A stretch of DNA of 64,000 nucleotides, taken from Clostridia bacterium (GTDB taxonomy: Bacteria; Bacillota; Clostridia; Oscillospirales; CAG-272). Below the pieces are notes generated by a model. It saw nothing but the letters and a program-made list of their open reading frames with translations. It did no database searches and was not told the DNA's origin. The stretch is from the NCBI GenBank assembly GCA_017613355.1, contig JAGAEA010000032.1:26752-90751 (forward strand), written 5' to 3'. A program made the translations under genes and the position numbers. This document shows, piece after piece, positions 27,969 through 63,368 of the stretch (its first letter is position 1; every line of letters begins with the position of its first letter).

Positions 27969-27979
27969 AGATACTCCTT

Positions 27980-29966: not shown

Positions 29967-30023
29967 CAATCATACGAACCACTTGTAACATTCGCATCGA
30001 GTGAAGGGGAGTAAACAAAAATA

Positions 30024-30643: not shown

Positions 30644-30681
30644 AAGATTGTATCGTATTTTAGCCGTTAGGAGGGCGTAAT

Positions 30682-40338: not shown

Positions 40339-40349
40339 ATACACTCCTT

Positions 40350-45924: not shown

Positions 45925-46329
45925 TCACTTCCAATAGACCTGGGACATCCCACGGGAGGTTGCCGTGACCGTGATCGGGAAAACAAAGTCCCCGAACCCG
46001 AGGAACGAGGTTCGGCAGGTCACCGTGCAGACAATGGGTTCTCCCAATTGCACATGACCCTGCGCGTCCAGCGTCTGGCTTTCCGAGAAATCACAGGAGA
46101 AATCGACGCCGGTCTGTTCATGGAGTTCGGCGGCATAGTCGCCGATATCGGTCGTGCCGTGCAGACAGGCGTAGTCGGTCAGGTGATCCGCGATCGTTTT
46201 GAGATTCTGGTTCAGGGCGATCAGGGACGCCGCGTTGATGAAGAACACCAACAGAAAAACGACCACGAGGATCGTGACCGCAATGTCGATGTATCCTTCG
46301 CCGCGCCGATTGTTGATTCTTTGTTTCAT
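45925..46329 (-). CDS. TadE-like / pseudopilin-like protein
   Basis: The ATG at 46329 overlaps the tadC stop as ATGA. The N-terminus is MKQRINNRRGEGYIDIAVTILVVVFLLVF. Confidence 0.55.
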   Translation of the reverse strand: MKQRINNRRGEGYIDIAVTILVVVFLLVFFINAASLIALNQNLKTIADHLTDYACLHGTTDIGDYAAELHEQTGVDFSCDFSESQTLDAQGHVQLGEPIVCTVTCRTSFLGFGDFVFPITVTATSRGMSQVYWK

Positions 46330-47198
46330 CCGAAGATCCCTCCCAGTGACGAGAGTAACACCTGCCCGATGACCACCACGTAGATGGAAGCAAAGCAAAT
46401 GAGCAGGATCATGGAGAGGCGGCGAACTTTCTTCGGGGCTTTGTTCGCTTCGTCCCGCAAGGACTGCCGTTGGTATTCCCCGAATTTGCGGGAAAGATCT
46501 TCCCAGCGCGTCGGGGTGCTGTTGCCGTTGATGACACTTTGCAGTTCGCGGATGACTTCGTCCACTTTCGGCGAACCGATGCGGTTGCCCATCCTTCGCA
46601 GGGCTTCCAGATCATGACCCGAACGCATATCCGCGACCGTGATATCGAGTTCGTGCTTGAACTCGGTTCCGGCTTTCTCGCGGTAGCCGTCCAGGATCGA
46701 GAGGACGTCCCGGCTGTGGGAAAGGGTGTTCGCCACAACCGATACGAAACGCGGCAGTTCTTCCTCAATGCGCGTTCTGCGTTCCTTGATGGCACGGCTG
46801 ACCTTACCGGCCAGCCGTCGATACAGAATGACGGCAACGATGAGAATCAGGACCGCCAGGATCCGGGAGAAAAAGAGCGCGGGGAGAGCAAGAAAGCCGA
46901 CCAGCGCGCTTTTGACAATACAGTCCGCGACGTATCCTTCCGGAGAGATATCCAGATCTGCCGTCCGGAGATCTGCCTCGAGCATCAGGCGGCGGTATTC
47001 GTTGAGCCTCAGTTTGCCCACGAGCCAACCGGACACTTCCCGCAGGAACAGTTCCACGGGATTCGTTTTCTTTTTCCGTTTGCCGAGACCGTTCGCCGCC
47101 TTCGACGCCGCATAGTGCGGAACACGGAAAATATCCGAAAGAAGGAACGCAAGACCGAGGGCAAACAGAACTGAACCGAATATTATGATCCACATCAT
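46326..47198 (-). CDS. tadC: TadC-like type II secretion system F-family membrane protein
   Basis: 290 aa with N- and C-terminal transmembrane segments and a central cytoplasmic domain. It follows the tadB-like gene with an overlap. Confidence 0.65.
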   Translation of the reverse strand: MMWIIIFGSVLFALGLAFLLSDIFRVPHYAASKAANGLGKRKKKTNPVELFLREVSGWLVGKLRLNEYRRLMLEADLRTADLDISPEGYVADCIVKSALVGFLALPALFFSRILAVLILIVAVILYRRLAGKVSRAIKERRTRIEEELPRFVSVVANTLSHSRDVLSILDGYREKAGTEFKHELDITVADMRSGHDLEALRRMGNRIGSPKVDEVIRELQSVINGNSTPTRWEDLSRKFGEYQRQSLRDEANKAPKKVRRLSMILLICFASIYVVVIGQVLLSSLGGIFG

Positions 47199-48133
47199 CT
47201 GCCACCCCCTTTTCGGTATTCCACGGGTTTCGTGAACTTGAACGCGAAGATACCGGTGACGAGGATCGCCGCGCCGCAGATTGCCAGCACGATTTTACCC
47301 GGGACCGTATCCATGAGCGCCGCGTACCAGTCCTTGTTCAGCAAATACAGAAGCGGGATGTTGGCAAGAACCATGCCCGCCATCACGAAGTATTCGGTTC
47401 TGGCTGCCGTCATCATTGCCTTGATGTCCCGGTTGACGATGGCAATATCGGTCAGTTTGGTCACGATGGGCATGAGCGTATGCTTCAGGCTCCTGTCATC
47501 TTCACAGGCGATGAGCGTATCACACCAGTCGGCGAACACCGTGTTGTCGATCTTTTCCTGCAGAGATCGGATGCATTCCTTTCGGTTGGCACGGATCATC
47601 GTGCAGTCGGCAAGGAATCCCGCGAAGATGTCCCGCAGGGGCGGGCGCAGGTAGCCGATGTTTTCCTCAACCGCCGTCACGATGTCATCCGTGCGGATGT
47701 AGGACGCGGTGATGCTCGACAGGGCGGTTTCGAGGGATTCGGTGATGTGGTTCCGGTAATAGGTGATGGTTCGGCGCAAAAAGGCAAACGGGATCAGCGC
47801 CATGGCGAGTGCCAGCACGGGAATCAGAAACAGATTATCGATAGCAATTGCCAAAACCGTCCCGACCAGCATGAACAGCAGCGACAGCGCGCAGGCGAGG
47901 GCAAACCGCCCGCCTTTTCCGGTGGTTTCGAGCGCGTCCCTGACGCGGCGGAGTCCGACTGTCAGGCGGTGCGAGGTCTGTTTGCCTTTGGCACGGAGCG
48001 TCCGGCTCCGAAGAGTCGGCCCTTTGTTTTCTCCCCGCGAAAGGTCTTTCATGACGCGATCCGGGGTCAGTCCCAGAAGCAGAATGATTCCTACCGAGAG
48101 GAGTAAAAAACAAATCAGATAGAGAAATGTCAT
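47195..48133 (-). CDS. tadB: TadB-like type II secretion system F-family membrane protein
   Basis: 312 aa with the same architecture, directly downstream of the CpaF/TadA ATPase gene. Confidence 0.65.
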   Translation of the reverse strand: MTFLYLICFLLLSVGIILLLGLTPDRVMKDLSRGENKGPTLRSRTLRAKGKQTSHRLTVGLRRVRDALETTGKGGRFALACALSLLFMLVGTVLAIAIDNLFLIPVLALAMALIPFAFLRRTITYYRNHITESLETALSSITASYIRTDDIVTAVEENIGYLRPPLRDIFAGFLADCTMIRANRKECIRSLQEKIDNTVFADWCDTLIACEDDRSLKHTLMPIVTKLTDIAIVNRDIKAMMTAARTEYFVMAGMVLANIPLLYLLNKDWYAALMDTVPGKIVLAICGAAILVTGIFAFKFTKPVEYRKGGGR

Positions 48134-48148
48134 GGTTCACCTCTTTCT

Positions 48149-49444
48149 TCAGTTCAGGAACCGTTCCAGCGTCTGGTACGGCACGCCGTTACGGATCAGG
48201 AGGGTTTGCAGATCTGCGGACGGCACGCCCATCTTCCGGAACTGCCCGGTGATCTTGTATTGCCCGTTTTCACAGGTGTTCCCGGTGATGTGATATCGGT
48301 ACAGGCACCGATACCTTGCAACCCCGTCCGGCGTGACCGAACATTCCGAAATGTCCATGACACGGCGGTTGTTGTCTTCGCACTTGTGGCAGAAGGCAAC
48401 GATCGGGAACGCCTGACGCGCCTGGGCGAGTGAGACTTCCATGCCGAGTTGGAAACGCCGTTGGCATAGCAGAGAGATGCGCCCGTGCGCCGCTTCCGCA
48501 GGACCCGAATGGACGGTCGTCACCACGGTGTGGCCGGTAAGCGACGCTTCCACAGTTGCGTTGGCTTCCGCGTCCCGGATCTCCCCAACGACGATCAGGT
48601 CGGGATCGAACCGCAGGGCGGCGACCACCAGATCTTCCTGGGAGATGTTGTAGGCCGCGTTTTCGTTCGGCCGGGAGAGCGTATGGACGACGTTGTTCAG
48701 GATCTCACCGTTCGGTTTCTTCTTCACGAGAAACAACTCCCGCGCGCCGGACTCAATCGAATAGATGCGCTTGTCATCCGGAATGGAAGCGAGAAGCGCG
48801 CCGACCAGCGTGGTTTTGCCACTGTTGGTTCTGCCCGCCACCAGAGAGGAAACCCCGTAGCGGATGCACATTTCGAGGAACTCCATCATTTCCTCGGTCG
48901 CCATGCCGCTCTCGATGATGCACTTCCGGTCCACCCGTTGGGGATGCAGAAGCCGGATGGAGACCGATACCCCGCAACATTCGTCCACGACAGGTGTTTT
49001 GATCGCAGTGATACGGGTATTGTTCGGCAGGTGTCCCTGTGCCATCGGTGTCGCGTTGTCGATGATCATGCCGCTATGGTGCAGCAGACGTTTGACGATG
49101 TCCACAGCGTGACTCGGGCTGTGGAAATGCTCTTTCAGCTTTTCCATTCTGCCGTCCGACCAGGTCAGGGTTACGTCGTCCCAGCTGTTGATGTTGATTT
49201 CTTCGAGGTCGGGGTTCCCGAGGTAGGGTGTCAGGACCGAGTATTCCACCATTTCGCTGAACAGGCGGCCAACCAACTGTTCGTCGGTAAAGCCGTCCAC
49301 GATATAGCCGTGATCCATCACGAACTTCTCGATGTAATACCGCAGATCCTCGCGTTTGTTCTCGTCGGTCAGGGCAGAAGCATAGGTTTTGGAGATATAC
49401 CGCTGGGTTTCATTCAGAACGTCCCACAAATTACTCTTGACCAT
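48149..49444 (-). CDS. tadA: CpaF/TadA family pilus assembly ATPase (T2SSE superfamily)
   Basis: 431 aa with the Walker A motif GRTNSGKTTL, the VVGEIRD Asp box/Walker B and TGHTVVTTVHS His box. Confidence 0.85.
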   Translation of the reverse strand: MVKSNLWDVLNETQRYISKTYASALTDENKREDLRYYIEKFVMDHGYIVDGFTDEQLVGRLFSEMVEYSVLTPYLGNPDLEEININSWDDVTLTWSDGRMEKLKEHFHSPSHAVDIVKRLLHHSGMIIDNATPMAQGHLPNNTRITAIKTPVVDECCGVSVSIRLLHPQRVDRKCIIESGMATEEMMEFLEMCIRYGVSSLVAGRTNSGKTTLVGALLASIPDDKRIYSIESGARELFLVKKKPNGEILNNVVHTLSRPNENAAYNISQEDLVVAALRFDPDLIVVGEIRDAEANATVEASLTGHTVVTTVHSGPAEAAHGRISLLCQRRFQLGMEVSLAQARQAFPIVAFCHKCEDNNRRVMDISECSVTPDGVARYRCLYRYHITGNTCENGQYKITGQFRKMGVPSADLQTLLIRNGVPYQTLERFLN

Positions 49445-50178
49445 CGTTCACAACCCTTTCCGCGATTTCACGCATTCTTTTGTTGAATCGCTTATCGGAC
49501 ACCGATTCCCAGAGCTTTCCGGACAGGGACTGTTCCTTGACTTCGCGGCAAAACGGGACGGTAAAGCACAGGTCCTTCAGATGGGCTTTCGCTTCCTCGA
49601 TGGGAAGAAACACATCCTCGGTGACCGTGTTCAGACCCTGAATGAATTTTGCGGTATCCGAAAAAAGAGGGAGCTGCGAGAGGAAGAAACTCATACTCGA
49701 CAGATCCGGCGTGGCAAGCGAGAGAACCTGCTGAGCACGTTCCATCGCAACCACGGCCAGAAGATTGCCGTCCGGCACGGGAGGACAGTCCACGATGACG
49801 TAATCCGCAAGTTCGCAGAGCTTGTCCAGCAGGTCTTCCGCTTTCGCTTTGCTGTAACGCGGATAAGTGAATCGGTTTTCTCCCGCGCGGTATCCGATGT
49901 AGCAGAGATTCTCCCGTTTCTTGACCGACACCAACTGGGTCAGGATGCTCTCCATTTCCAGATCTATGGCGGATAGCGGAACACCGACCGATCCGAGTTC
50001 TTCGGAAGGGGTGTTCGGAAACAGGACCGGCATGGTCGGGGTGTCGAGGTCGGGATACAGGACGATGACCGTGGTCTTGTAGGAATCATAGATCGCAGAG
50101 GCGAGTTTCGTGGCGAAGGTGGTCTTGCCCGCATGAGGAGAACCCCACACGGCAAGGATTTTGGCTTGTTCTTTCAAA
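49431..50178 (-). CDS. TadZ/CpaE-like ParA/MinD-superfamily ATPase
   Basis: It has the deviant P-loop AVWGSPHAGKTT. The likely start is the TTG at 50178, with AGAGGG 6 nt upstream right after the cpaB stop. The track ORF extends to 50288. Confidence 0.55.
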
Positions 50179-50181
50179 CCG

Positions 50182-50913
50182 TCACCCTCTTTCCGCGAAG
50201 TACGCCTCTTGTGCGTCGAGATACCGCTGTGCCGTTGCCGCATCCCCACGGTATTCGAGCGTGAAGTGCATGGACGCCGTCTTTTCATACTGTGCCAGCA
50301 GTTCTGCCTGCTCTTGATTGACGAGCAGTGTCACGGTTACCGGTTGGGCATGATCTTTGACGTCGGCTTTGTCGATGCCGGACGAGGTCGTGCTGGTGAT
50401 GACCTTGACGTAGGACAGTTCGGGCGGCGTAAAAGCAAAGCCGTCTTTTGCGGAATACACGATGACCGAAATGATGTCCCCGGTTTCGAGTTTGCCGGAG
50501 ACGCCCGCCGCGAAGGTCCCGATGCTGACCGAGATCGCCTTATGGTTCTCATCCAGCACATCCAGAATGTCCATCGCGGTATCCACGTCGGACGTCAGTT
50601 TCATGGGAAAGAGATAATCCCCCGCGTAAAGGTCACAGGTCGCGTACTTTCCGACAACGTCCGAGGGCTTCGTCAGGACACCCTGCGGAATATGATAACT
50701 GCCCACGCTGACGGTTTCGATATCGTTTTCGGTCACGAGACTGCCGCGCGTCACGGTTTTCGATATGCGGACGATACTGGTTCTGCCGTCCTTTGCCCGG
50801 TTGACCAGCGGGGCAACACCGAAGCAGATGGCAAGGGCGGCGATCACACAGAGGATGCCGATGATCGTGCGGTTGCCCATTTTACGGGAACCGATGGATT
50901 TTGTCTTCTTCAT
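50182..50913 (-). CDS. cpaB: CpaB/RcpC-like Flp pilus assembly protein (SAF domain)
   Basis: It has an N-terminal transmembrane segment followed by a SAF-like segment (VRISKTVTRGSLVTENDIETVSV). Confidence 0.65.
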   Translation of the reverse strand: MKKTKSIGSRKMGNRTIIGILCVIAALAICFGVAPLVNRAKDGRTSIVRISKTVTRGSLVTENDIETVSVGSYHIPQGVLTKPSDVVGKYATCDLYAGDYLFPMKLTSDVDTAMDILDVLDENHKAISVSIGTFAAGVSGKLETGDIISVIVYSAKDGFAFTPPELSYVKVITSTTSSGIDKADVKDHAQPVTVTLLVNQEQAELLAQYEKTASMHFTLEYRGDAATAQRYLDAQEAYFAERG

Positions 50914-50928
50914 GGATTCCTTCCTTTC

Positions 50929-51585
50929 TTACACGAAGAACAAAATCATTGCCGCGACCGAAAGGAACGGAACGAGGGCAAAGGGCTGTTTCTTCGGAAT
51001 GCGCCGGATTCTGCCGTAAATGCTTACGAACAGGACGGCGATGATGAGTCCCGCAAGGTAGGCGACGATCCCGCGCCAGCCGCCGAGCAGGAACGCCAAT
51101 GCGGTAGAGATCTTGATATCGGCACCGCCGAGCGTCCTGTGGGGCGGAAGCCATGCCGGGATCATCTGGGGCAGGAAGACGAAGAGCGCGGCAAGGACCA
51201 TGGAGAGGATGCTTTGTGTTGCCAGAGACGGAATCGCCAGCGCGAGGATCAGCACCCAAGCATAGTCCCCGACCTCATGGGTAGCAATGTCCGAGCAGGA
51301 AGCGTAGAGAAGCACAAAGGCAAGGAACAGTCCCTGAATTGCCGTGACCGACAGCCCGAACCGTGCAAACAGGGCAAGGGACAAAAGCCCGAATAATGGC
51401 AGAACAACCGCCGTTTTTGCTTTGAAGTTCTGCCGTTGCAGGACGCGGCAGAGCGCCCATGCAATAAGTAAAGAAATCCCGACGAAGAGAATGGCGGACA
51501 AAATCAGGGAAAGAACCTCACGGGGAATGTTCTCTCCCTGCAGCCGCCAGATACCGACAGTCGGGATCATAGGATGGATCATCAT
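50929..51585 (-). CDS. tadV: A24-family prepilin peptidase (TadV/CpaA-like)
   Basis: It is polytopic with two catalytic Asp motifs (SCSDIATHEV and GGADIK). A GGAGAAACA RBS precedes the ATG at 51585. Confidence 0.75.
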   Translation of the reverse strand: MMIHPMIPTVGIWRLQGENIPREVLSLILSAILFVGISLLIAWALCRVLQRQNFKAKTAVVLPLFGLLSLALFARFGLSVTAIQGLFLAFVLLYASCSDIATHEVGDYAWVLILALAIPSLATQSILSMVLAALFVFLPQMIPAWLPPHRTLGGADIKISTALAFLLGGWRGIVAYLAGLIIAVLFVSIYGRIRRIPKKQPFALVPFLSVAAMILFFV

Positions 51586-51672
51586 TGTTTCTCCTTTCAG
51601 GTTGCTGCGGGGCATAAAAGCCCCGCAGCCGGTTTGTTGGATCACTCGTACTTGGTCAAGACCGCCGTCCGA

Positions 51673-51906
51673 TCAAGTGCCGGAATAATTGAACATATTG
51701 GTGATTTTGGTGGTCATGTTCGGGATGACGACCGTGTTGAAGAGCGCGTAGAGGCCGGCAAGGATCAGACCGCCGATGACGACGCCGATGATGATTTTGA
51801 CACCAGTATCGATGTAGCCTTCGGCTTTGCGGTTCTCGATAGCGAGTTTGGTAGCAACAGCGGTGCGGTTGAGTTTGTTCTTGATGGAGTTGAAGAGTTT
51901 TTTCAT
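51673..51906 (-). CDS. flp: Flp-like pilin, copy 1
   Basis: 77 aa with a basic leader, AEGYID, then the hydrophobic helix VKIIIGVVIGGLILAGLYALF. The RBS is GAAAGGAAA. Confidence 0.7.
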   Translation of the reverse strand: MKKLFNSIKNKLNRTAVATKLAIENRKAEGYIDTGVKIIIGVVIGGLILAGLYALFNTVVIPNMTTKITNMFNYSGT

Positions 51907-51937
51907 GTATTTTGTTTCCTTTCTGTGTTTGAATTGG

Positions 51938-52546
51938 TTAAATCAGGATCATGTCCGACCAACCGGCTTTCCATTCCAGGCCGGTGGGAGTGGTCATGGT
52001 GTAGTAGGTCTGCCCACCCGCCCAGTAGCGGATGACAAATCGTTCCCCGGAGAAAGATCCGGCAGTGTTGGGCAACTGTGCTGAAGTACCGTAATAGCAA
52101 TGCGTGATGCTTTGGGCGTTGAAGTTGTACTTCTGCGTCCAACTGATACCGCCATCTTCGGAGGAGAGGATGTAGTAGGTGCTTCCATCCTTCAGAAGCG
52201 CCACCGAAACCGGATTTTCCTCCGCGTTGTCGGTCATGGTGCCGTACACGGTCGTGGTTTCGGAATAGGACGGCATTTGACAGTCAAACCAGTGGGTTCC
52301 GTCATAGGAATAACGGAGTACCGTTCTGTTCCCATCCTGCACGCTTACATAACGGAGAGAAGCGTTCTCGCCGTAATCCATCAGCGCGTTGACCTCGGTG
52401 CTGGCTTTGGTCAAAACGCCGTTATCGCCTCCGAACAGCATGTATGCTCCCGCGATGAGAAGTCCACCCAACACAACGGCGATGATAATGATCACCGCCG
52501 TCTTGATGTGTCCCTCTCCGCGTTTATTAAAGAAGATCTTGTTCAT
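51938..52546 (-). CDS. Pilin-like protein with a ~150-aa C-terminal globular domain
   Basis: The N-terminus is MNKIFFNKRGEGHIKTAVIIIIAVVLGGLLIAGAYMLF. It is followed by a Ser/Thr/Tyr/Trp-rich beta-type domain. Confidence 0.6.
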   Translation of the reverse strand: MNKIFFNKRGEGHIKTAVIIIIAVVLGGLLIAGAYMLFGGDNGVLTKASTEVNALMDYGENASLRYVSVQDGNRTVLRYSYDGTHWFDCQMPSYSETTTVYGTMTDNAEENPVSVALLKDGSTYYILSSEDGGISWTQKYNFNAQSITHCYYGTSAQLPNTAGSFSGERFVIRYWAGGQTYYTMTTPTGLEWKAGWSDMILI

Positions 52547-52909: not shown

Positions 52910-53329
52910 TTACATTTTCTGCACTTGTTCGGCAGGTTCGGGCTGGGGCTGGGACTGCTGTTGCTGCGTGTTGGACTGGGCGTTGACGAGGGCTTGGTCG
53001 TATGCTTCCTTGACCGCGCCGTGGAGTTGCTCACGGGCTTCTTTGGTCACGGGGAAGAAGATGTCCTCGTACTTGGTTTCGCCGTTCTGATCGGTGTAGG
53101 CACGCTGGGGCGTATTGATCCAGAAGCCCTTTTCATTCTCAAAGAGCCGGATACCGCGCACCGCGAACCCGCCGGGCAGATTGGCGTTCGCCACCGCACG
53201 CAGACTCTTGGAAGTGTCGGTAAAGATCTTGTCAATCCGGACCGTGATCCCGTCCCGGGCTTCCTGTTCCACGCGTTCGGTGTCGCTCGCCTGTTTGATG
53301 GTTGCGCCGCCTTTCTTGCTGGTTGCCAT
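52910..53329 (-). CDS. SpoVG family protein with a Gln-rich C-terminal tail
   Basis: ITVRIDKIF...LRAVANANLPGGFAVRGIRLFENEKGFWINTPQRAY...EDIFFPVTKEAREQL matches the SpoVG fold pattern. The RBS is AAAGGAGGAAAA. Confidence 0.65.
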   Translation of the reverse strand: MATSKKGGATIKQASDTERVEQEARDGITVRIDKIFTDTSKSLRAVANANLPGGFAVRGIRLFENEKGFWINTPQRAYTDQNGETKYEDIFFPVTKEAREQLHGAVKEAYDQALVNAQSNTQQQQSQPQPEPAEQVQKM

Positions 53330-53418: not shown

Positions 53419-54519
53419 TCACTCAAGCGTTATGAATGTGAAACCGCAATCGGCCTCGACTTCTTCGTCGGGGATGTATTCCGGATCGGCAAAGCGTTCG
53501 AGATATTTGTCCACCTGCTCTTGGGTCAGGTCGATAAATTCGCCCTGTCCGTTGTCGCCAAGGATATACAAAGGACCTGCGTAGATGCTGCCTTCGATCC
53601 GTCTGGTCCCTGCCATATGGTTCAGTTTTGCTTCCTCATTTCCGAGGATCGCGGCGTTGTCATCGAACGGGTAGGTGATCTCAAAGAATGCTTGCTCTCC
53701 CTGTCCGCTGACGGCTCGCTGAAGTCTTTCACGTCCGTTTTGAATCCGCGTTTCTACGGGCGGGCATCCGGATTGGATCATAACGGTGCGAAGACCTTTC
53801 ATCTCCTGACACTTGGATGTGTCGAAGTCCGGCAGATTGACAAAACCGAAAGTGTCAACGTAGTAAACCCCTTTGGTTTCGTTTGCGCTGCCATTCACGA
53901 GTTCCACGAGATCGCCGACCGAGAGCGAGTACCCTTGATAGGAACCTTCAAAGCCCTCGTTGAAATGGATATAAACGTCTTCGAGGCAGTCCGCATACAC
54001 ATATCCGCGAAACACGCAGCGGTAGCGTTCAGGCTTGACGGCTGTGGGATCGACGTCACTATACCCGTGGAACAACAGGTCGCCGATCTGCTGATCCTGA
54101 TCCGGCTGGAAGATGTTCACAAGCCGGTATTCCTTGGTCTGTTCCGCGTATTTGCGGAAGTCATCGATCAGTCCGTTGACGATTGCGGAATGGCTGTTCA
54201 GGGCAAACATGGCGTTGGGTTTGTCACCGAGCAAGGCAACCTTTTCGGACCAATCGCAATTGCTCGGATGGAATCTGCCGTCCCCCTCCCGTAACCGCAC
54301 GGTATTGGCAAGAACCAACATGACACGGTCGCGCCCGAATTCCGTACAGATGATTTCCGGGAGATCCACTTTCAGGTGCATGCCGTCAAAGGACTCGGCG
54401 ATCAGCTGATCCATGCGAAGCCTGCAACGAACGGTTTCGCGATAGGATTCCCGCCATTCGTCGAGGCACCCGCGCTGTTTGGCTTCTTCGGCGGTTTCCA
54501 GATGAAGCGGGATTCGCAT
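53419..54519 (-). CDS. Multidomain conjugative-element protein (DUF3849-like, YodL-like and DUF3846-like regions)
   Basis: The YodL-like block is RYRCVFRGYVYADCLEDVYIHFNEGFEGSYQGYSLSVGDLVELV. The DUF3846-like block is LRTVMIQSG...ITYPFDDNAAILGNEEAKLN...GPLYILG. Confidence 0.55.
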   Translation of the reverse strand: MRIPLHLETAEEAKQRGCLDEWRESYRETVRCRLRMDQLIAESFDGMHLKVDLPEIICTEFGRDRVMLVLANTVRLREGDGRFHPSNCDWSEKVALLGDKPNAMFALNSHSAIVNGLIDDFRKYAEQTKEYRLVNIFQPDQDQQIGDLLFHGYSDVDPTAVKPERYRCVFRGYVYADCLEDVYIHFNEGFEGSYQGYSLSVGDLVELVNGSANETKGVYYVDTFGFVNLPDFDTSKCQEMKGLRTVMIQSGCPPVETRIQNGRERLQRAVSGQGEQAFFEITYPFDDNAAILGNEEAKLNHMAGTRRIEGSIYAGPLYILGDNGQGEFIDLTQEQVDKYLERFADPEYIPDEEVEADCGFTFITLE

Positions 54520-56147: not shown

Positions 56148-56998
56148 AGTACTTTCCTTTCTTGAATTCTGCTTTTTATATCTTCCGGATCGTCAAAAAA
56201 GGTCAACTGCCTAGCAAGGATGCCCTCGGTCAGCGTATCGTAGTTGGCAATCAGAAGTTCGGGGTACTGTTTACCCGCGTCATACCGCTGGGCGATATTC
56301 GACAGGCGGGTGGTGGTTTCGATCGTGATGCCGGGTTTGGAATACAACTCCCGTATTTCCGGGCAATCGTTATAGGAAAGCAGGAACTTTCCTTCGATCC
56401 CCAAGAGGGCGTTACAAAGCCGTTCGTGGTCTGCCCTTGTAAACCCGACGTCCTCGTAGTAATCCTCGGTGGCATAGTAGGGTGGATCCAGATAGAACTG
56501 CGTGTTCGGGCGGTCGTACTGGACGATGAGTTTCTCAAAATCCTTGTTCTCAATCACCACTCTCTGAAGTCGTCCCGCTGCACAACGAATGATGGGAAAC
56601 TTCTCCCACATCCCGCATGGCTGTGCACCGAAGGAATCAAGTCCCGACGCATAGCTCTGCCGGATGACCTGATAGAAGTACGCCGCCCGGCGGACGTCCG
56701 GCAGAACGGTTTTGCTGTGGAGCATCTCCCGGACATATTCAAAGTCCAATCGGGAATTCAGCACATATTCGAGTTCGTCGTGCAACTCTTGGGAATGTTC
56801 CCTGACGCACCGATACAGGTTGGTCAGATTGGGGTTGAAATCGTTATAGACCTCGAACGGGTGCGGATTTTTACGGAACAGCACCCATCCCCCGCCGCCG
56901 AATACTTCCACGTAACGGTCGCAGGAATCGGCAAGACGGACGATGATCTCATCCCGCAGGGCTTTCTTCCCGCCGACCCAACTCATAAAACTATTCAA
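56132..56998 (-). CDS. Dam-class (D12) N6-adenine DNA methyltransferase with no cognate endonuclease nearby
   Basis: It has the SWVGGKK N-terminal motif and DPPY catalytic motif. The probable start is the TTG at 56998, 7 nt after GAGGAG. Confidence 0.8.
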   Translation of the reverse strand: MNSFMSWVGGKKALRDEIIVRLADSCDRYVEVFGGGGWVLFRKNPHPFEVYNDFNPNLTNLYRCVREHSQELHDELEYVLNSRLDFEYVREMLHSKTVLPDVRRAAYFYQVIRQSYASGLDSFGAQPCGMWEKFPIIRCAAGRLQRVVIENKDFEKLIVQYDRPNTQFYLDPPYYATEDYYEDVGFTRADHERLCNALLGIEGKFLLSYNDCPEIRELYSKPGITIETTTRLSNIAQRYDAGKQYPELLIANYDTLTEGILARQLTFFDDPEDIKSRIQERKVLWKPN

Positions 56999-57035
56999 TT
57001 GATCACTCCTCTCTTTCAAAACCTTGAGATAATGG

Positions 57036-57084
57036 AAAAAGAAAAAGGGGGACTCTTTTGCAAAGTCCCCCAAAACGGTTTTGG
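57036..57084 (-). terminator. Intrinsic terminator after the 194-aa gene
   Basis: On the minus-strand RNA, CCAAAAC g GTTTTGG is followed by GGGGGACT...AGTCCCCC and then TTTTTCTTTTT. Confidence 0.7.
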
Positions 57085-57086
57085 TT

Positions 57087-57671
57087 TTATAAGGTCATTT
57101 CGTTTTCTTCTTCATTGCCCCAATCTTCCTCGCGTTCGTCCTCGTCTTCATCTGTCGAGGTAATGTTGACGTACTCTCCGATGATACCGAGTGCCTCGGA
57201 ATAACTGCCGCTGGAGGTGACTCGCTTGGTCATCTCGGTCGCTTCCTCCCGCATTCCGTTTTCACGGAGCGTGCGCGCGGCGATACCGATCAGGTTGAAA
57301 ATGTTACCGTCCTGCCCGATCAGGGGACAGTCCGGTTTTTGTCGTTCGGTTTGGATTTCTTTTCCGAATCGGTTGTCGAGATAGTCCGACAGCCAGGTAC
57401 CGCCGAATGCTCCATGCGTGGAGAGCCGCCACATGGCGAGCTTGCCCACATTGAGTTTGGTGTCCCGGAAGTCGAACAGCAGGCAGGTCACCCCTTCGTT
57501 TTCAAAGCGGAACACGTCTTTGAAGGTGTCCCCGTCCAGCAGGATTTCTTCGGTTGTCAGGAGATCTTGAATCCCGTCGATCCATTCCTGCGGATCACCT
57601 CCGCAACCCTGAATGATCAGGCCCTCATGCTTCCGCATCGCTTTCAGTTCGTCCAGCGTGATGTCTTTCAT
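57087..57671 (-). CDS. Hypothetical acidic-tailed protein
   Basis: 194 aa with an ATGA overlap with the upstream gene. It ends ...DEDEDEREEDWGNEEENEMTL. Confidence 0.6.
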   Translation of the reverse strand: MKDITLDELKAMRKHEGLIIQGCGGDPQEWIDGIQDLLTTEEILLDGDTFKDVFRFENEGVTCLLFDFRDTKLNVGKLAMWRLSTHGAFGGTWLSDYLDNRFGKEIQTERQKPDCPLIGQDGNIFNLIGIAARTLRENGMREEATEMTKRVTSSGSYSEALGIIGEYVNITSTDEDEDEREEDWGNEEENEMTL

Positions 57672-58576
57672 TGCTGCGTCATCCCTCCGTCCTCGTTCAA
57701 GTATCCGTCGATGTCGAACACATCCAGGTGGCTGTATTCCTCAAAGGTCAGCGTGCCGCCGAGAAAGTTCGGATCGGTTTCGTCGTTCAGTTCGATGTGG
57801 TCGCGCTCACCGAAGTCAATCGGTTCTTTCGACACGATGGACCCGGCGTGATCCACGCGAACGTTTGGTTCGATGGTGGCGAATCGTCCGGTGTCCGGAT
57901 TCTGGCGAAGATGGTACAAGTGCCACCCGTTCGGGATGTCTTCTTCGGTCAGGCGACTGTTGGAAAACAGCATGATCTTCCCGAAAAGATCCACCGGCTC
58001 ATATTCCTCGTTGTCCATACGGATGAACCTCGTATGAGCCGCGTTTTCGCACATTCCGAAGTCTTCTTCATCATAATCCCAGACACGGAGTGCCATTCGG
58101 AACGCTTCGACCGAACCGCCGTCCGGGATATCTTCGCCAGCAATCTCGCCATCGGCATATTCGACGGTTCCGACGTTGTAACCCATATCCTCGTCTGCCC
58201 ATTCGTGGGTGAATCGGACGTCCGGATAACGTTCGGCAAGCCGTTCGATGACGGGAAACGGGGGAGCCCAAGCGGTTTGGAATGAAAGTGTATGGCTGTT
58301 TTCGTCACAGTCGTTACTATAACTGTTCCATTTGGTTCCCCAGTGGGAAACGCTCCAGTCGTACCAGTTGTCCTTGCCGTACAGCCGCATTTCTGCTGCT
58401 CCGAGATTGCCGCGATAGATATGATCCGGCATGGGGATCAGCTTGTTGAAGTCGAAGGTGCCGATGCCTGTTCTTTCCGCATTGGCTCCGGGTTCATAGC
58501 AAACTGCCCGCAGGATCTCCTGAAAGCGTTCCTGCGGGCAGTCAAAAATGAGATGGTTTTCTACATGGTTTGGCAT
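57668..58576 (-). CDS. DUF1281/Api92-like protein
   Basis: It has the HWGTKWN motif and the FQTAWAPPFPVIERL block. It ends ...NEDGGMTQQ. Confidence 0.5.
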   Translation of the reverse strand: MPNHVENHLIFDCPQERFQEILRAVCYEPGANAERTGIGTFDFNKLIPMPDHIYRGNLGAAEMRLYGKDNWYDWSVSHWGTKWNSYSNDCDENSHTLSFQTAWAPPFPVIERLAERYPDVRFTHEWADEDMGYNVGTVEYADGEIAGEDIPDGGSVEAFRMALRVWDYDEEDFGMCENAAHTRFIRMDNEEYEPVDLFGKIMLFSNSRLTEEDIPNGWHLYHLRQNPDTGRFATIEPNVRVDHAGSIVSKEPIDFGERDHIELNDETDPNFLGGTLTFEEYSHLDVFDIDGYLNEDGGMTQQ

Positions 58577-58588
58577 TTTTGTTCTCCT

Positions 58589-58855
58589 TTACATGGTCAT
58601 GATGTTTTCTTCTGTTTCGGTCTGCTCCGGGATCTTCTCAAAGGAGTCTTCTCCCCAGATCAGACCGAGTCCGCTGCCGTTGTCCCAACGGACATGGATC
58701 GTAGCGGCGTCATCCACGCCGACAACCGTTCCTTCCGTTCCGGGCGGAACCGGGCGCGGGTCGCTGCCCATCTGGATCAGACGGACTCTCGTGCCAGACG
58801 GATAGTGTTCTCTCAACCGTTCGGCTGTGCGTCGTAACATTTCCCACTCGTTCAT
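58589..58855 (-). CDS. DUF4314-like small protein
   Basis: It contains GTEGTVVGVDDAATIHVRWDNGSGLGLIWGEDSF and ends ...TEENIMTM. Confidence 0.5.
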   Translation of the reverse strand: MNEWEMLRRTAERLREHYPSGTRVRLIQMGSDPRPVPPGTEGTVVGVDDAATIHVRWDNGSGLGLIWGEDSFEKIPEQTETEENIMTM

Positions 58856-59598
58856 GTGATACCTCCTATTTCGATTGTTTCTTCGGGCGTTTCAGTTGCG
58901 GTTTCCAGCATTTGTTCTACCTCAAAGGGAACATGGTCATTGTCCACGTGAATATCCCCGTCAAAGAACACGGTATACCAGTATTTGTATGGGACAACCG
59001 TTTTCATGATCCCTTGATCTCTTTCGGTCATGGAATCGTTATGGTTCACCACGCCGAAGGGTGTGATCAGATTGGAACCGTAATGCTCGCCCGAGGATTG
59101 CAGATCCAGATCCACAAGCCCCGGATAGATGGCTCCGTCCTGCCCCTGTATGACAGCGGGGAAGGTGACAAATCCCATATCCCGCACCGCATAGGAGATC
59201 CCGTAAGTTTTCACATACTCCTGATGCATCTGTTGGAGAATCTCCGTGGCGTAGGTCAGATCCCGATTTTTGTATTCGTGGGAAAGATCCCGCCAGTTGA
59301 TATTGCGGATCACGTTCTCGTTGACCGACCGCACGAATTCTTCCCGCAGTTTCATGCAGTTGAATTCGTATCCTTCTTTCTGTGTCAAGGGACGGAAGAA
59401 GTCCTGGGTGACGGAAAGGCAGAGATGTTTCCCGTTTTCCGTGCGGGTGCGGATGTTTCCGGCATCGTCCACAAAAGCGACGCGGGCAACGTTGTCCTCG
59501 TTCAAGTGTTCCTCTCCGAACGCGTCCTGCTCTTTGAGGAGCAGATACATCCCGGGGAGATACCGTTTCTGCGTGATTTCGATTTCGTTCTGTGTCAT
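58852..59598 (-). CDS. Hypothetical protein
   Basis: 248 aa with ATGA overlaps at both ends. It ends ...EETIEIGGIT. Confidence 0.55.
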   Translation of the reverse strand: MTQNEIEITQKRYLPGMYLLLKEQDAFGEEHLNEDNVARVAFVDDAGNIRTRTENGKHLCLSVTQDFFRPLTQKEGYEFNCMKLREEFVRSVNENVIRNINWRDLSHEYKNRDLTYATEILQQMHQEYVKTYGISYAVRDMGFVTFPAVIQGQDGAIYPGLVDLDLQSSGEHYGSNLITPFGVVNHNDSMTERDQGIMKTVVPYKYWYTVFFDGDIHVDNDHVPFEVEQMLETATETPEETIEIGGIT

Positions 59599-60755
59599 GA
59601 CAGACCTCCCATCGTAAGATCCTCATCCTGTTCCGGCGGAAAGAGTTCTTCTAAATCTTCCGGATCCATAACACCGACAAAGCATCCGTCTTCCAGAATT
59701 TTGCCGTTTGTCATCTCCCTGATCGCTTTCGCATAGGCGGCTGTGTCGATATATCCCCTCACTCCCGGGTCACACGAAATGTCATGTTCTTCCATCCATT
59801 CGCAGACCAGATTTTCGTCGTCCCAGACTTCGGGGGAAACATAGAAGAGATCCGTGTTTTCGGCAAGCGCGATAATCGATTCGCTGTCGGTGCGTCCGGT
59901 GTATTCAATGATGTGTGCCAGTGTGTCTGGATGATCTTCCTCGCTGACCGCCCGGCAGGTGCGAGAGAATGCGTAAACGCCTTCTTCCCGCAAAATATCT
60001 TCCAGATATTGATCCAGTTTGGGGTTCCCGCTATCGAGCGTTTCGATTTCCCATCCGCAATCACCGAATTCGTCAGCCCCGACACGGCGAAGCGCGCGGA
60101 CAATGGCGGTTTCGTCATCTGGGAAGTAGAGATATTCGTCCGCGTCCCCGTAATGGATCTTGATTCCAGCGAGATAGGAATCGTAGTAATACTCCGGGAA
60201 CGTCTTCCCGTTATAGAACGGTTCTTCCGGCTCATCCGCACAAAGTTCTTCTTCATTCGGAAACAGGATCCCATATTCGGTGATGATCCCTTTCCCGGAT
60301 TGGAGCAGTTTGCGACCGATCTCGGTCAGTTCGTCATCCGAAAATCGGTCGGGGTTTATCAGTTGATGCGTGTTCAAGCAGTATTTATATCCGACTTTAT
60401 AGGGATTCGACACATCCCGAATCAGGACATACGCGCCGCGCTCCTTGTATTCCGAAAGATTGATTAAATCTTTCACGCTTTCGGGATGCCGGAACCGTAT
60501 CAGGGCTAAATACTCTGCGTCTTCATAGTTATCATACTGGTCGATGAATTTTGCGAGGAAGTTCAGTTCGTCAAGGTCGATCTTCTGTCCGTTCAGAAAT
60601 GCGAACTCTTTGGGAGCGACGAATTCATGGACGGGAATGGTACGGGTTTCGATGGCTTGGGGATAGAACTGTTTCATCAGGTTTTCCAATGCGCCATCTC
60701 CGCACGGGAAAGAAAAAGTCCCGAATGTTTCGGGATTTCTGATTGTGATCTTCAT
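59595..60755 (-). CDS. Hypothetical acidic protein
   Basis: An AAGGA RBS precedes the ATG at 60755. The track extension to 60971 would overlap the fic gene. It ends ...EQDEDLTMGGLS. Confidence 0.55.
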   Translation of the reverse strand: MKITIRNPETFGTFSFPCGDGALENLMKQFYPQAIETRTIPVHEFVAPKEFAFLNGQKIDLDELNFLAKFIDQYDNYEDAEYLALIRFRHPESVKDLINLSEYKERGAYVLIRDVSNPYKVGYKYCLNTHQLINPDRFSDDELTEIGRKLLQSGKGIITEYGILFPNEEELCADEPEEPFYNGKTFPEYYYDSYLAGIKIHYGDADEYLYFPDDETAIVRALRRVGADEFGDCGWEIETLDSGNPKLDQYLEDILREEGVYAFSRTCRAVSEEDHPDTLAHIIEYTGRTDSESIIALAENTDLFYVSPEVWDDENLVCEWMEEHDISCDPGVRGYIDTAAYAKAIREMTNGKILEDGCFVGVMDPEDLEELFPPEQDEDLTMGGLS

Positions 60756-60906: not shown

Positions 60907-61953
60907 CTACTTGATTCGATAGTAACAGATGTTCTTCCCCTTTCCCTCGCGCCGCAATTCGCCGGAGGCAATCAACTTCCGCAACGCATTCTCAATAGAA
61001 CTGATGCTGATGGATGGGCAAAGTTCCCGAATATCCTGCTTGGTGAAACGACCGATTTTATTTTGTGTGGCGAGCCGTACCATATCAAGCGCGGAGCGTT
61101 TGGTTTCTATCAACGTGAAACGATCTTCAAAGTCCTTATATGCTGCAAGAATCGTTCCAAGCAGGTATTTGATGAATGGAACGGGATCGTCCTTCCCTTC
61201 ATGCCACCCTTCCTGCGATGCGGAAAGCGCGTCATAGTAGAGGTCTTTGTTTTTGGCGATTTTCGCTTCCAGCGAGATATATTTCCCAACATAAAACCCG
61301 TTCCGATAGAGTAAAAGCGTGGTAAGCAATCTGCTCATACGCCCGTTTCCGTCGTTGAAAGGATGGATACAGAGAAAATCGTGGATGAAAACCGGAATGG
61401 CGATCAGCGGTTCCACTTCCATATTTCCGATCACGCGGTTGTATTCCTCGCAAATCCGATCCAACGCCTCCGGCGTTTCGTAGGGAGCAAGCGGCGTAAA
61501 GAGCGTTTTTGTATGACCGTCCGGATAGGTCGCGCTGATATAGTTCTGCACGGTTTTGGTGCGGCCTGCCAACGGATTGTTCATGTGACCGTAAAGAATC
61601 TTATGCAGTTGAAGAATATAGTTGCGCGTAATCGGAATCGCGTCAAAACTATCGTGGATAATGCCCAGAACATCCCGATACCCCGCAATCTCCTGTTCAT
61701 TGCGGTTTTTTGGAGTTGTCCTTTCTTCCACAAGCTGTTTGATACGAGTGTTGGTCGTAACAATCCCTTCAATTGCGTTGGATGCCTCGGTGCTTTGGAT
61801 TTTAGCAATCTCAACCAATTTTTCGAGTTCTTCCGGCCGTTGTTTCAAATACAGTTCCTGTTTGCCGACCTCTTTGTAAATGGCGGCAATCAGACCAAGA
61901 ACTTCTGAATCCCATGTTTGATTTTTTATGGTGCTGTAATGGAATTTTCTCAT
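60907..61953 (-). CDS. Fic family protein with an internal inhibitory motif and a C-terminal winged helix
   Basis: It has the HPFNDGNGRMSRLL active-site motif. The N-terminal SNAIEG matches the (S/T)xxxE(G/N) inhibitory helix motif. Confidence 0.85.
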   Translation of the reverse strand: MRKFHYSTIKNQTWDSEVLGLIAAIYKEVGKQELYLKQRPEELEKLVEIAKIQSTEASNAIEGIVTTNTRIKQLVEERTTPKNRNEQEIAGYRDVLGIIHDSFDAIPITRNYILQLHKILYGHMNNPLAGRTKTVQNYISATYPDGHTKTLFTPLAPYETPEALDRICEEYNRVIGNMEVEPLIAIPVFIHDFLCIHPFNDGNGRMSRLLTTLLLYRNGFYVGKYISLEAKIAKNKDLYYDALSASQEGWHEGKDDPVPFIKYLLGTILAAYKDFEDRFTLIETKRSALDMVRLATQNKIGRFTKQDIRELCPSISISSIENALRKLIASGELRREGKGKNICYYRIK

Positions 61954-61975
61954 ATCATCACCCGCTTTCCCTTAA

Positions 61976-62004
61976 ATAATACCATAAAATAAGGGAATTG
62001 TCAA
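61976..62004 (-). promoter_or_regulatory. Near-consensus extended -10 promoter of fic
   Basis: On the minus strand: TTGACA (62004-61999), a 17-nt spacer ending in TGg, then TATTAT (61981-61976). Confidence 0.65.
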
Positions 62005-62050
62005 GAGATTAAGGGATATTGTTGTAACTATTTTTGCCGGAACAGCGGTT

Positions 62051-62779
62051 TTATTCGGTTTCGGAGTAGAATTCTTTTCCGTCGTCCAGCCGCAGGCAGG
62101 CAAGCCGACCGTGAAGGAGTGTTCCGTGATAATGAACCTGTCCCAGCCCGCTTCCGCAGTCGATGCCAATCCGGTTATCACCGTACCAGATTGACAGATC
62201 TTCGTTGCTCTGATAGAAGCAGGTCGGCGTATGCCCGAAGATGACCGTGCGATCCGCGAAAAGCGGGGTTTCGGGTTCAATGCGTTCCCATGTGCAGAAT
62301 TCGCGCTTGGAAGTTTTCCATTTCCATGCCTCGTCATAAAAATCGGGCGGGATCCCGTGAACTAGTTCGTAGGGCGTTTCGTTTACCACGATTTGCACCG
62401 AGAGCGGTAGGGCGTTGACCTTTGCCATCAGGGATTCAATTTCGGATTGGCTCATCCCCTGCAATCCGTTCACAGTCACCCACCCGCCGTTGTGTCGCCA
62501 ATCCTTCCACGCCGACCGATTTGCGAAGATCGGGAAGAACGGGTCGTGCAGGTCGTATTCGCCAGAAAAGGTATTCAGCATCATCAATTCATGGTTGCCG
62601 AGCAGGACGGTCGCGTTTTCCATGGAGAGCAGTTGTTTCAGCAATTCGATCCCATGCTCCCCGCGGTCGATCACATCCCCGATAACATAGAGGTGATCGC
62701 CCGGTTGAAGGTCGATCTGTTTCATCACAGAATCAAACGCCTGCTTGTTCCCGTGAATATCCGATAGGACATAAATCAT
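62051..62779 (-). CDS. PPP-family Ser/Thr protein phosphatase (lambda/PrpE/ApaH-like metallophosphoesterase)
   Basis: It has the motifs SDIHGN, GDVIDRG, GNHE and GHTP. An AAGGAAGGA RBS precedes the ATG at 62779. Confidence 0.8.
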   Translation of the reverse strand: MIYVLSDIHGNKQAFDSVMKQIDLQPGDHLYVIGDVIDRGEHGIELLKQLLSMENATVLLGNHELMMLNTFSGEYDLHDPFFPIFANRSAWKDWRHNGGWVTVNGLQGMSQSEIESLMAKVNALPLSVQIVVNETPYELVHGIPPDFYDEAWKWKTSKREFCTWERIEPETPLFADRTVIFGHTPTCFYQSNEDLSIWYGDNRIGIDCGSGLGQVHYHGTLLHGRLACLRLDDGKEFYSETE

Positions 62780-62828
62780 GTGTTTTTCCTTCCTTTTTTG
62801 CCGTTTTTTGTATAGACGGTACGCAAAT

Positions 62829-63368
62829 TTACGGATGTTCCGCTTTGAACCGTTCGTTGTTGGCGACCAGTTCCTCAAAGGTGACAGGACGGTATCCGTT
62901 CAAATCGGCTCCCGCGTTCAGCATCCGATTGCGGACACGGATCAGCGACCAGAAGTCCAGAGTGGTATCTGTATGAATATGCCCGTAGATCATGTATGCC
63001 CGCTTGGGGTGGTTCCATGAGAGCAGCGGATAATGGCAGAGCGTCATACCGTGTTGCCCGTCCGAGGTTTCCAAGAGATGGTCAACGCTCTCGAAATACT
63101 TTCCGAGGTCAACCTTTTTCATCCACGACCCGTCGTGGTTGCCGATGAGCAGGCGTTTCTTCCCCTTGAGGCGCGAGAGAATGTTCTCCGCGTCCTTGGC
63201 GCGGAAGCAGAGATCTCCGAGAATGAACACGGTATCGTTGCTGCGTACCCGTTCGTTCCAGAGAGCGATCATGGCTTCGTCCATTTCTTCTGCCGTGTTC
63301 CACGGGCGGTTGCAGAACCGGATGATATTCTCATGCCCGAAGTGATTATCTGCTGTAAAGTAGATCAT
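62829..63368 (-). CDS. Small metallophosphoesterase family protein
   Basis: It has the motifs ADNHFGH, LGDL, GNHD and GHIH. The RBS is GAAAGGAG. Confidence 0.7.
   Translation of the reverse strand: MIYFTADNHFGHENIIRFCNRPWNTAEEMDEAMIALWNERVRSNDTVFILGDLCFRAKDAENILSRLKGKKRLLIGNHDGSWMKKVDLGKYFESVDHLLETSDGQHGMTLCHYPLLSWNHPKRAYMIYGHIHTDTTLDFWSLIRVRNRMLNAGADLNGYRPVTFEELVANNERFKAEHP

Follow-up and report, generated by a model that had tools for sequence, protein, structure and literature searches.

In the Dot/Icm system of Legionella and Coxiella, a type IVB secretion machine, hundreds of unrelated substrates have in common the E-block signal, which lies in their last 20–30 residues and is disordered and rich in glutamate, and Nagai 2005 and Huang 2011 are said to place a hydrophobic residue near the very end of these signals. 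Acidic C-terminal signals of this kind are bound by basic patches of DotM (PMC5802825). Here we describe a C-terminal tail of similar layout that is likewise carried by unrelated proteins, those of a conjugative element of the gut-Clostridia type. The element lies in a stretch of 64,000 nucleotides, hereafter the window, from the genome of a Clostridia bacterium (JAGAEA010000032.1, positions 26,752–90,751; C30:26752-90751 of the 1.37-Mb assembly GCA_017613355.1).

SSB carries an acidic C-terminal tip whose hydrophobic end, with its free carboxylate, fits a pocket on the partner protein. According to excerpts of PMC8406263, the acidic C-terminal tail of F-plasmid TraD docks into TraM and couples the relaxosome to the channel, and the type IV secretion system (T4SS) of this plasmid moves maintenance and leading-region proteins (SSB, PsiB, ParA/B) into recipients; the excerpts define no sequence signal for these accessory proteins. 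Substrates of the Agrobacterium VirB/D4 system carry a positively charged C-terminal signal (Vergunst 2005, as cited in the excerpts of PMC8406263). Polyvalent proteins of phages and conjugative elements are predicted to be delivered together with DNA against host defence, in an account that mentions no tail or signal (Iyer et al. 2017, PMC5512222). For Gram-positive systems a 2025 review of T4SSs states that "experimental evidence is limited", even on the contact between relaxosome and coupling protein (PMC12857230), and our literature searches found no published description of the tail reported here, nor of an accessory-protein signal in Gram-positive T4SSs. Its retention in relatives, the tip on the relaxase and its absence from phage copies make the tail look like a label for docking or export that has so far gone undescribed.

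About ten unrelated soluble proteins of the element end in the same disordered, acidic tail with a Met/Leu tip (Table 1). Eight of them had been listed in a sequence-only reading of the window, and all eight translate as described there, with exactly the ends that were given. Comparison with the host used a crude, greedy set of open reading frames (ORFs) from the whole assembly: five element proteins end in MT[LM] vs none of ~1,100 other ORFs (four of the five are in the greedy set; the product of 57087–57671, hereafter g57087, was added, a spurious antisense ORF having displaced it). We then gathered 25 related loci through the LPD28 protein (31–51% identity), from Ruminococcus, Oscillibacter, Anaerotignum, Muricomes, Butyrivibrio and others. 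Successive small neighbours in these loci also end in an acidic tract and a Met-rich tip (...EGMEMSM, ...ESMDMSM, ...NGPVMGM, ...DGGMTMT, ...ESMSLKM, ...PEGMGMSL). Among their dereplicated element-side ORFs, Met at −1 to −3 is enriched 5–9-fold, and the combination of acidic tract and Met tip gives an odds ratio (OR) of 17.7 against the host genome (p = 1.7e-8). When database gene calls from five elements were counted, Met-tipped ends were found on 40 of 65 soluble acidic element proteins, compared with 19 of 219 ORFs of this soluble acidic class in the host (OR 16.8, p = 1e-17), and on 6 of the 41 other proteins of the same elements; the elements are related and not independent, so these p-values are overstated, while the effect is large. 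The motif is strongly non-random, far beyond chance, and the condition set as a refutation in the sequence-only reading, that it be equally common at C-termini genome-wide, is contradicted by these counts.

The motif is wider than "MTL". In general form it is a disordered D/E-rich linker of ~10–30 residues followed by a tip of ~3–6 residues, in which positions −1 and −3, and often −5 as well, are hydrophobic, for the most part Met or Leu. In the family of g57087, which comprises 5,663 clusters in the protein database, the fold stops at a conserved ...IIGEYVNITS, after which come a hypervariable linker of 13–32 residues (62% D+E) and then the tip. Across 100 distinct homologue tails of this family, −1 is hydrophobic in 80% (L 59, M 17) and −3 in 76% (M 48, L 19), −5 is Met in 36%, −4 is Gly or Glu, −7/−8 are acidic in 73–81%, and Lys or Arg reach at most 3% everywhere except 9% at −2. 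AlphaFold2 models of g57087 have confident domains and a tail of pLDDT (predicted local distance difference test) ~38; in the DUF4314 protein (58589) the domain is likewise confident and residues 79–88 are at ~41, and neither tail has secondary structure. The tail is thus disordered in the models, and it would behave as an amphipathic, β-strand-like peptide with a free carboxylate.

Homologues of the individual bearers at 30–65% identity retain the type of tip while its sequence is altered. The 57668 (LPD28) protein has homologues ending in ...TMGMEMSDT, ...SEVMKLC, ...PGEMQL, ...QEMGGM and ...ESMSLKM; DUF4314 proteins end in ...NIMTM, ...GPVMGM, ...GPVMS or ...MRFHTL. Homologues of 35089 end in ...ESMDMSM or ...EEMEMQM, with 23 ending in ...PTMGGQA or ...PTMGEQS, and those of 36460, down to 51% identity, in DEP[EQKR][MI]TM. 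The 58852 tail is identical in close relatives, and ...FGMGGIT recurs on an unrelated protein of locus L049. For 59595, a homologue in L023 ends in ...PITMGEM, an orthologue in ...TLSMGEMS, and the L039 protein in ...GTMGGLS. Two further bearers had been missed by the sequence-only reading. One is a candidate, the HipA_C kinase-like protein, 13 homologues of which end in ...QTQ[SF]GGQTML; the other, the three-domain fusion g53419, has a variant tip, and its homologues end in ...ADTGFMVYSM (...GFMVYSM) or ...ADTGFRIYFM.

Part of the pattern reflects gene packing. The Gly-Gly of the tips had been ascribed, in five cases, to the GGAGG Shine-Dalgarno (SD) sequence of an overlapping downstream gene. 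The by-product is real, in four genes (35089, 57668, 58852 and 59595); the fifth, 33947, encodes its Gly-Gly as GGTGGC with no downstream gene for ~250 nt, and there the residues are not SD-encoded. Its protein, g33947, has ten homologues whose common part is the N-terminal domain only, none with this tail, so this one Gly-Gly tail outside the SD explanation is without conservation evidence. Across 45 Met-tipped tails from six elements, the next start lies at most 3 nt from the stop for 11 of 13 G[GE] tails vs 9 of 32 non-GG tails (p = 8e-4). Gly-Gly is therefore an embedded GGAGG in tolerant positions between hydrophobic residues (M-G-G-M/L/I).

The Met/Leu tip itself is not an SD product, because the Met/Leu residues at −1 and −3 are beyond what an SD can encode. 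The non-GG tails are spread over every distance, 23 of the 32 lying 7–250 nt before the next start, and codons in the window tails vary synonymously (Thr ACA/ACG/ACC; Leu CTG/CTA/TTA); together these make the acidic Met/Leu tip independent of gene packing. As the sequence-only reading had pointed out, the SD explanation does not apply to 36460 and 58589, where the downstream SD lies after the stop, or to 57087, where a terminator-like hairpin follows. Its further suggestion that the E-x-MT(L/M) end is selected as protein is borne out by the variable codons, by the retention of tip type among homologues and by the occurrence of the tip whatever follows; homologues that lack an overlapping downstream gene keep the tail, the opposite of what it had named as a refutation. 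A DNA-level repeat or cassette in the window was considered and rejected, as codons differ between tails; the 13-nt identity of the 35089 and 57668 ends was likewise not taken as a repeat, G-G-M-T plus an SD being sufficient to force it.

The tail is confined to the C-terminus. In g53419, no tail-like segment is found at the internal junctions, and a stand-alone YodL protein ends in ...QSQTMQL before terminator-like sequence. In loci L024 and L006, an extra domain of ~95 residues stands between the DUF4314 fold and the tail, with the ...EEDNxPVxGM tip still at the very C-terminus. A generic inter-domain linker of fusions was rejected on these grounds, the tail being absent at the g53419 junctions and terminal despite the inserted domain.

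Comparison with phages indicates that the tail is specific to conjugative contexts. Genes for DUF4314, Amidoligase_2 and GGACT co-occur both in L002, the locus of an integrative and conjugative element (ICE), and in true phages (Streptococcus Javan638, Terrisporobacter TPDSL_ph1 and three Heliusvirales gut phages). In the phages the proteins either finish where the domain does (amidoligase ...AWRH(AA), DUF4314 ...DSVEKI) or have an extension of another kind, while ICE copies run on for 13–43 residues (...EDETEGMEMSM, ...MEDDIQMSFGI, ...EDMDEGPVMS). The C-terminal domain of g57087 also has phage copies, in Bacillus phage SP-15, a Mammaliicoccus phage, Mycobacterium phage Allegro and one of the Heliusvirales, and these stop precisely where the ICE linker starts (...YVNVI*, ...YVEVA*, ...WVAVG*, ...YVDIE*). 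In these comparisons, four families (DUF4314, amidoligase, GGACT and g57087) end untailed in phages.

All bearers in the window are soluble and have net charges of −7 to −41 (−7 to −59 across all bearers examined), and the proteins without a tail are membrane parts of the T4SS and pilus, ATPases, helix-turn-helix (HTH) proteins and basic proteins. The same class carries the tail in four divergent family members, L046 to L049. Some divergent members show synteny of tailed genes with T4SS genes: within 10 kb, TrbL and VirB4 are found in L046 and TrbL in L048, and none is visible in the examined parts of L047 and L049. Tailed proteins in these loci are ArdA-like, DUF4314, DUF1281_C, LPD28, g57087-family, DUF4313, Imm51, DUF3849, YodL/DUF3846 and SpoVG proteins; the tail is never found on methylases (C5, N6/N4 or Dam), on MazE-like proteins, on the sortase or on membrane proteins.

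The MobL relaxase, missed by the sequence-only reading, also appears to carry the tip. Among 37 metagenomic relatives gathered through the primase (~50% identity), relaxase homologues end in ...NAEMSMQ, ...NAEMSML, ...NAEITMQ, ...NAEISMQ, ...NAEIGYTM or ...NAEFDFIM, compared with ...NAEIIF in the window. The tip is present in 6 of 7 distinct endings, against a host background of 2.2% for a terminal "E then h-x-h" and 0.1% for "M-x-M in last five". Its codons vary, the SD of the primase gene is placed beyond the stop, and the tip is also kept where there is no following gene. The obligatory protein substrate of the T4SS would thus itself bear the tip. At this position the window has ...AEIIF and its relatives have ...AEMSM[QL].

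The weaker version of the tail that had been proposed for the VirD4 coupling protein is not supported: its homologues end in basic sequence (...LGQDGGTK, ...KPHKPEVRQ), and the EEGQTG of the window overlaps the SD region of the gene that follows. At their 3′ ends (26157–26180 and 27980–28003), the genes for VirD4 and the primase have GA(A/G)GGGCAAAC(A/G) in common, which reads ...E-G-Q-T... and is probably SD context for the following gene and not a tail. VirD4, which has no tail of its own, would be the most plausible reader of the tails on other proteins.

Another conjugative lineage seems to use a different tail. Homologues of the N-terminal domain of g33947 led to two arrays, L051 (4291–11284) and L052 (8016–19302, the same as L050), in which consecutive proteins (DUF4314, LPD1 and many others) end in a different module, [ST]-L-[DEN]-x-x-I-x-x-A-x-x-[RK]. 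This module stands ~29–42 residues from the end and is followed by 15–25 polar residues (K/T/S/E), often ending in ..ER. L052 starts with a protein of >2,139 residues that ends in 3D and CHAP domains, and CHAP cell-wall hydrolases are typical of Gram-positive conjugative elements; L050–L052 would therefore represent another conjugative lineage. DUF4314 is thus found in three states, untailed in phages, with an acidic Met-tipped tail here and with the local dialect in the L050–L052 type, which fits a reader encoded by the element and not a conserved host protease or host hub.

Taken as a shared recognition feature of the element, the tail holds up in these sequence comparisons. Our preferred reading, at about even odds, is that it would be a recruitment or export signal for the T4SS of the element; such a role fits because the tail is specific to conjugative elements, because the relaxase has the tip and because lineages differ in dialect. 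A narrower proposal, which we advance more tentatively, is that the acidic Met-tipped tail is an export signal read by the coupling protein in a large lineage of gut-Clostridia elements, with dialects differing between lineages (e.g. [ST]-L-D-x-K-I-x-x-A-x-E-R in L050–L052). The comparisons show the motif, its selection as protein, its terminal and disordered state, its conjugative setting, the class of its bearers and the dialects, while the receptor and the export step are what we infer here. The tail is a short linear motif at a free C-terminus, appended to many unrelated soluble acidic accessory proteins in a lineage with MobL relaxase, VirD4, split VirB4, TrbL_5 and a Tad-type pilus. Its amphipathic h-x-h-COOH tip would dock in a pocket flanked by basic residues on an element-encoded receptor, most likely VirD4 or else a VirD4 partner, and the label would bring the relaxase, together with a dozen accessory proteins, to the T4SS channel, through which they would enter the recipient with the DNA. 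Where the next start falls within a few bases of the stop, the tolerant tip positions also encode the SD, giving the M-G-G-(M/L/I) flavour. Separate tailed proteins would on this proposal be the non-covalent counterpart of fusing the same domains into one polyvalent protein.

Set against the E-block, its nearest known counterpart, the tail is found, as there, in the last 20–30 residues and with acidic and hydrophobic residues at −7/−8, −3 and −1 at the frequencies given above; Pfam scans of ~50 window ORFs identified VirD4, VirB4-like, TrbL_5, DUF3852 and Tad-pilus genes and found no DotM or Icm family. Dot/Icm is a Gram-negative system that exports to eukaryotic cells through DotL/M/N and IcmSW, whereas the element is of Gram-positive type (VirD4, split VirB4, TrbL_5, Tad pilus), and its tail has a defined Met/Leu h-x-h tip. 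The tail may act in the manner of an E-block signal but does not itself belong to the Dot/Icm system. The Agrobacterium signal is also short, unstructured, C-terminal and borne by unrelated proteins, and belongs to a conjugation-derived T4SS with a VirD4 receptor; unlike the tail it is Arg-rich, of opposite charge and without a hydrophobic tip, and the polar/basic dialect of L050–L052 is nearer to it in charge. With TraD and SSB the tail has in common an acidic disordered stretch, a hydrophobic terminal residue and a free carboxylate. In F, however, it is the coupling protein that is tailed and a relaxosome protein that has the pocket, whereas here many cargo-like proteins and the relaxase are tailed and VirD4 is not. 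F-plasmid protein transfer is comparable in that several plasmid-encoded accessory proteins are moved by a conjugative T4SS, in that case a Gram-negative one.

The elements have the domain repertoire of polyvalent proteins (LPD28, DUF1281_C, YodL, DUF3846/3849, ArdA, methylases, amidoligase) and the same predicted role. LPD28, DUF1281_C, DUF4314, YodL, DUF3846 and DUF3849 were identified in the window with Pfam, and ArdA, amidoligase, GGACT and methylases occur in addition in loci of relatives. Polyvalent proteins fuse 2–15 such domains into one giant polypeptide, whereas here the domains are encoded separately and the products are tailed individually; fusions in the window are limited to g53419 (three domains) and g57668 (two domains), the rest being single-domain genes. 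If the export proposal is right, each recipient would receive, along with the relaxase–DNA complex, at least a dozen separate proteins for anti-defence and establishment, amounting to a polyvalent protein in split form, and this would explain how separate-gene elements match polyvalent fusions. The transferred proteome would then be predictable from sequence for thousands of gut conjugative elements, given the number of clusters in the g57087 family alone, and the tail would point to uncharacterised genes that act in the recipient, for example in anti-defence. It would also offer a testable handle on substrate selection by the machines that spread resistance genes in the gut.

Several observations weigh against a coupling-protein-read export signal. 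The relaxase has the tip without the long acidic linker. Primases are classical transferred proteins in some Gram-negative plasmids, and the primase ends here are inconsistent among homologues, with ...GQAISY, which does not fit, as the commonest end beside ...AAVLSLE and ...SLILNLE (...PDEGQTME in the window). DNA methylases, which would be expected as co-delivered cargo, are never tailed. One element carries several tip flavours, with no concerted shift among close relatives, so any reader must be permissive, which weakens the argument from specificity. The Pfam scans of the ~50 element ORFs turned up neither DotM or IcmSW nor any other known adaptor family. Locus L045 (OY725851.1), of 25.7 kb, has a small tailed block and no detectable VirD4, VirB4, TrbL or MobL; a remnant, a wrongly assigned fragment and a genuine exception are all conceivable. 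The chromosomal SpoVG of the host (C9:15179–15415 of the assembly, beside murC- and holB-like genes) has at its end an acidic stretch and a hydrophobic tip, ...EENAGDDTAENAEDAPLMTV (...AEDAPLMTV), much like the element tails, and acidic hydrophobic-tipped tails are therefore a general docking device that is not unique to conjugation. SpoVG thus failed as a control of host against element; the element copy, a weak member, is not independent evidence because the chromosomal protein has a like tail, and ICE SpoVG tails were not counted.

OY725851.1 is the circular "plasmid 17" of Subdoligranulum variabile, typed as non-mobilizable, and carries homologues of g59595 and g57087 together with Dam, among transporter-like genes. 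In close relatives, the g57087 orthologue ends in ...DEGLFL vs ...NEMTL in the window, the protein being otherwise 95–98% identical; a gene for a 31-residue membrane peptide that overlaps the stop of this orthologue (L040:10597–10692) is lost in the window (56980–57090). A concerted shift of tips was considered and is not supported, as the relatives with ...DEGLFL keep every other tail unchanged.

The tail could instead dock on a hub that does not export, whether the relaxosome or incoming single-stranded DNA complex, a scaffold of the element or a host protein of DNA metabolism, and so gather proteins there. An acidic disordered linker and a hydrophobic tip with free carboxylate form a generic docking design, as in SSB and F TraD–TraM, housekeeping SpoVG ends similarly, and both the several tip flavours within one element and the exclusively acidic bearers would suit a hub. 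We nevertheless hold this unlikely: the phage versions of these domains are without the tail although they encounter the same host proteins, dialects differ between conjugative lineages in related hosts, which speaks against a host hub, and the tip is also on the relaxase.

It is more doubtful still that the tail is a degron, through which a host or element-directed protease would limit bearers to a brief anti-defence or establishment action. The layout is that of the ssrA tag, in which a non-polar C-terminal tip is preceded by a polar/acidic adaptor-binding stretch in a disordered C-terminus, and the bearers are plausibly costly proteins. The host transfer-messenger RNA tag is DNNTVAVAA, however, and the tails, with M-x-[ML], do not end in its [LV]AA; the motif is essentially absent from host proteins, phage homologues are untailed, the tip is also on the relaxase, the scanned element ORFs include no gene for a protease or adaptor, and a conserved host protease would not explain lineage-specific dialects. 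The degron alternative, which the sequence-only reading had also raised, is thereby weakened.

That the tail is a functionless by-product of gene packing (SDs, start codons, stop–start overlaps or cassette recombination scars) is highly improbable. In its favour, the Gly-Gly/Gly-Glu flavour is clearly an embedded SD, the VirD4 and primase ends overlap SD-like GA(A/G)GGG, and the tip changed along with downstream context in g57087 and the relaxase, yet the codon evidence and the SD limits at −1 and −3 given above, the 23 of 32 non-GG tails lying more than 3 nt (to 250 nt) from the next start, the tails that precede terminator-like sequences, the untailed copies in tightly packed phage operons and the linkers that are hypervariable in length and sequence while tip type is retained refute it for the tip and leave it true for the Gly-Gly flavour only.

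Table 1. Features of the conjugative element, in window coordinates; ends are C-terminal residues.
Feature	Position	Strand	Remarks
Conjugative element, gut-Clostridia type	~25.9–63.4 kb	−	
VirD4-type coupling protein (T4SS-DNA_transf)	26157–27983	−	Pfam
DUF3991/Toprim primase	27980–29386	−	ends ...PDEGQTME
MobL relaxase	31973–33280	−	ends ...KKNAEIIF
381-residue acidic protein (g33947)	33947–35092	−	ends ...KEEETDIGGMTM; GG codons GGTGGC
DUF6329 protein	35089–35970	−	ends ...EEQGMGGMTL; Gly-Gly is SD for overlapping GTG start of 33947
120-residue protein, weak DUF3848 match	36460–36822	−	ends ...NEPDEPEMTL; next gene's SD past stop
HipA_C kinase-like protein	36904–38424	−	candidate member; ends ...EEDIAENYSPKMVF (...ENYSPKMVF)
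VirB4, two genes	38509–40925	−	
TrbL_5	41213–42145		
Tad/Flp-type pilus set, complete	46326–52546		inside element, beside VirB4/VirD4/TrbL genes
SpoVG homologue	52910–53329	−	weak member; ends ...PEPAEQVQKM
DUF3849-YodL-DUF3846 fusion (g53419)	53419–54519	−	variant tip; ends ...EADCGFTFITLE / ...EEVEADCGFTFITLE
Two-domain soluble protein (g57087)	57087–57671	−	tail residues 172–194 (STDEDEDEREEDWGNEEENEMTL); ends ...NEEENEMTL
DUF1281_C + LPD28 protein	57668–58576	−	ends ...NEDGGMTQQ; Gly-Gly is GGAGGG SD of g57087
DUF4314 protein	58589–58855	−	ends ...TETEENIMTM; next gene's SD past stop
248-residue protein, weak DUF4314-like N-terminus	58852–59598	−	ends ...EETIEIGGIT; SD-embedding Gly-Gly
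386-residue acidic protein, function unassigned	59595–60755	−	ends ...DEDLTMGGLS; SD-embedding Gly-Gly

Genes for a relaxase, a coupling protein, a VirB4 ATPase and a VirB6/TrbL channel protein lie co-directionally on the one element, which marks its T4SS as of Gram-positive type. The pilus set comprises a T2SSE ATPase, two TadB/C-like membrane proteins, a CpaE-like protein, RcpC/CpaB, an A24 prepilin peptidase and several DUF6133 pilin-like genes, and the other genes of the element encode an HTH regulator, DUF3852 (VirB2-like), a large surface protein and a Dam methylase. For g57087, a fold search gave no match in the PDB (best E 0.28), and comparison with NCBIfam and PHROGs gave no functional information. 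VirB4 is encoded in two pieces with a 22-nt overlap, a 191-residue N-terminal gene and a 620-residue P-loop gene. Because both pieces have homologues as separate ORFs in primase-anchored relatives (both in L059 and L063), the split seems to be conserved and not a sequencing error.

The gap between primase and relaxase is 12–13 nt in relatives vs 2.6 kb in the window, where 29493–31908 holds an HTH_26 gene and an AAA_14/DUF4143 ATPase gene on the opposite strand and is probably an insertion. At the other end, a Fic/DOC gene and a metallophosphatase gene (60907–63368) lie upstream of the 386-residue gene. In relatives L040 and L041 this place is taken by housekeeping genes and a RadC gene, so the cargo at this end is variable. 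A GenBank entry labelled "UNVERIFIED: Bacteriophage sp." (MT835596, locus L031) matches the element in gene order over DUF4314, LPD28, the surface protein, DUF3852 and TrbL, and has the tails; its assignment to a phage was rejected, and with a TrbL gene present it is an ICE fragment.

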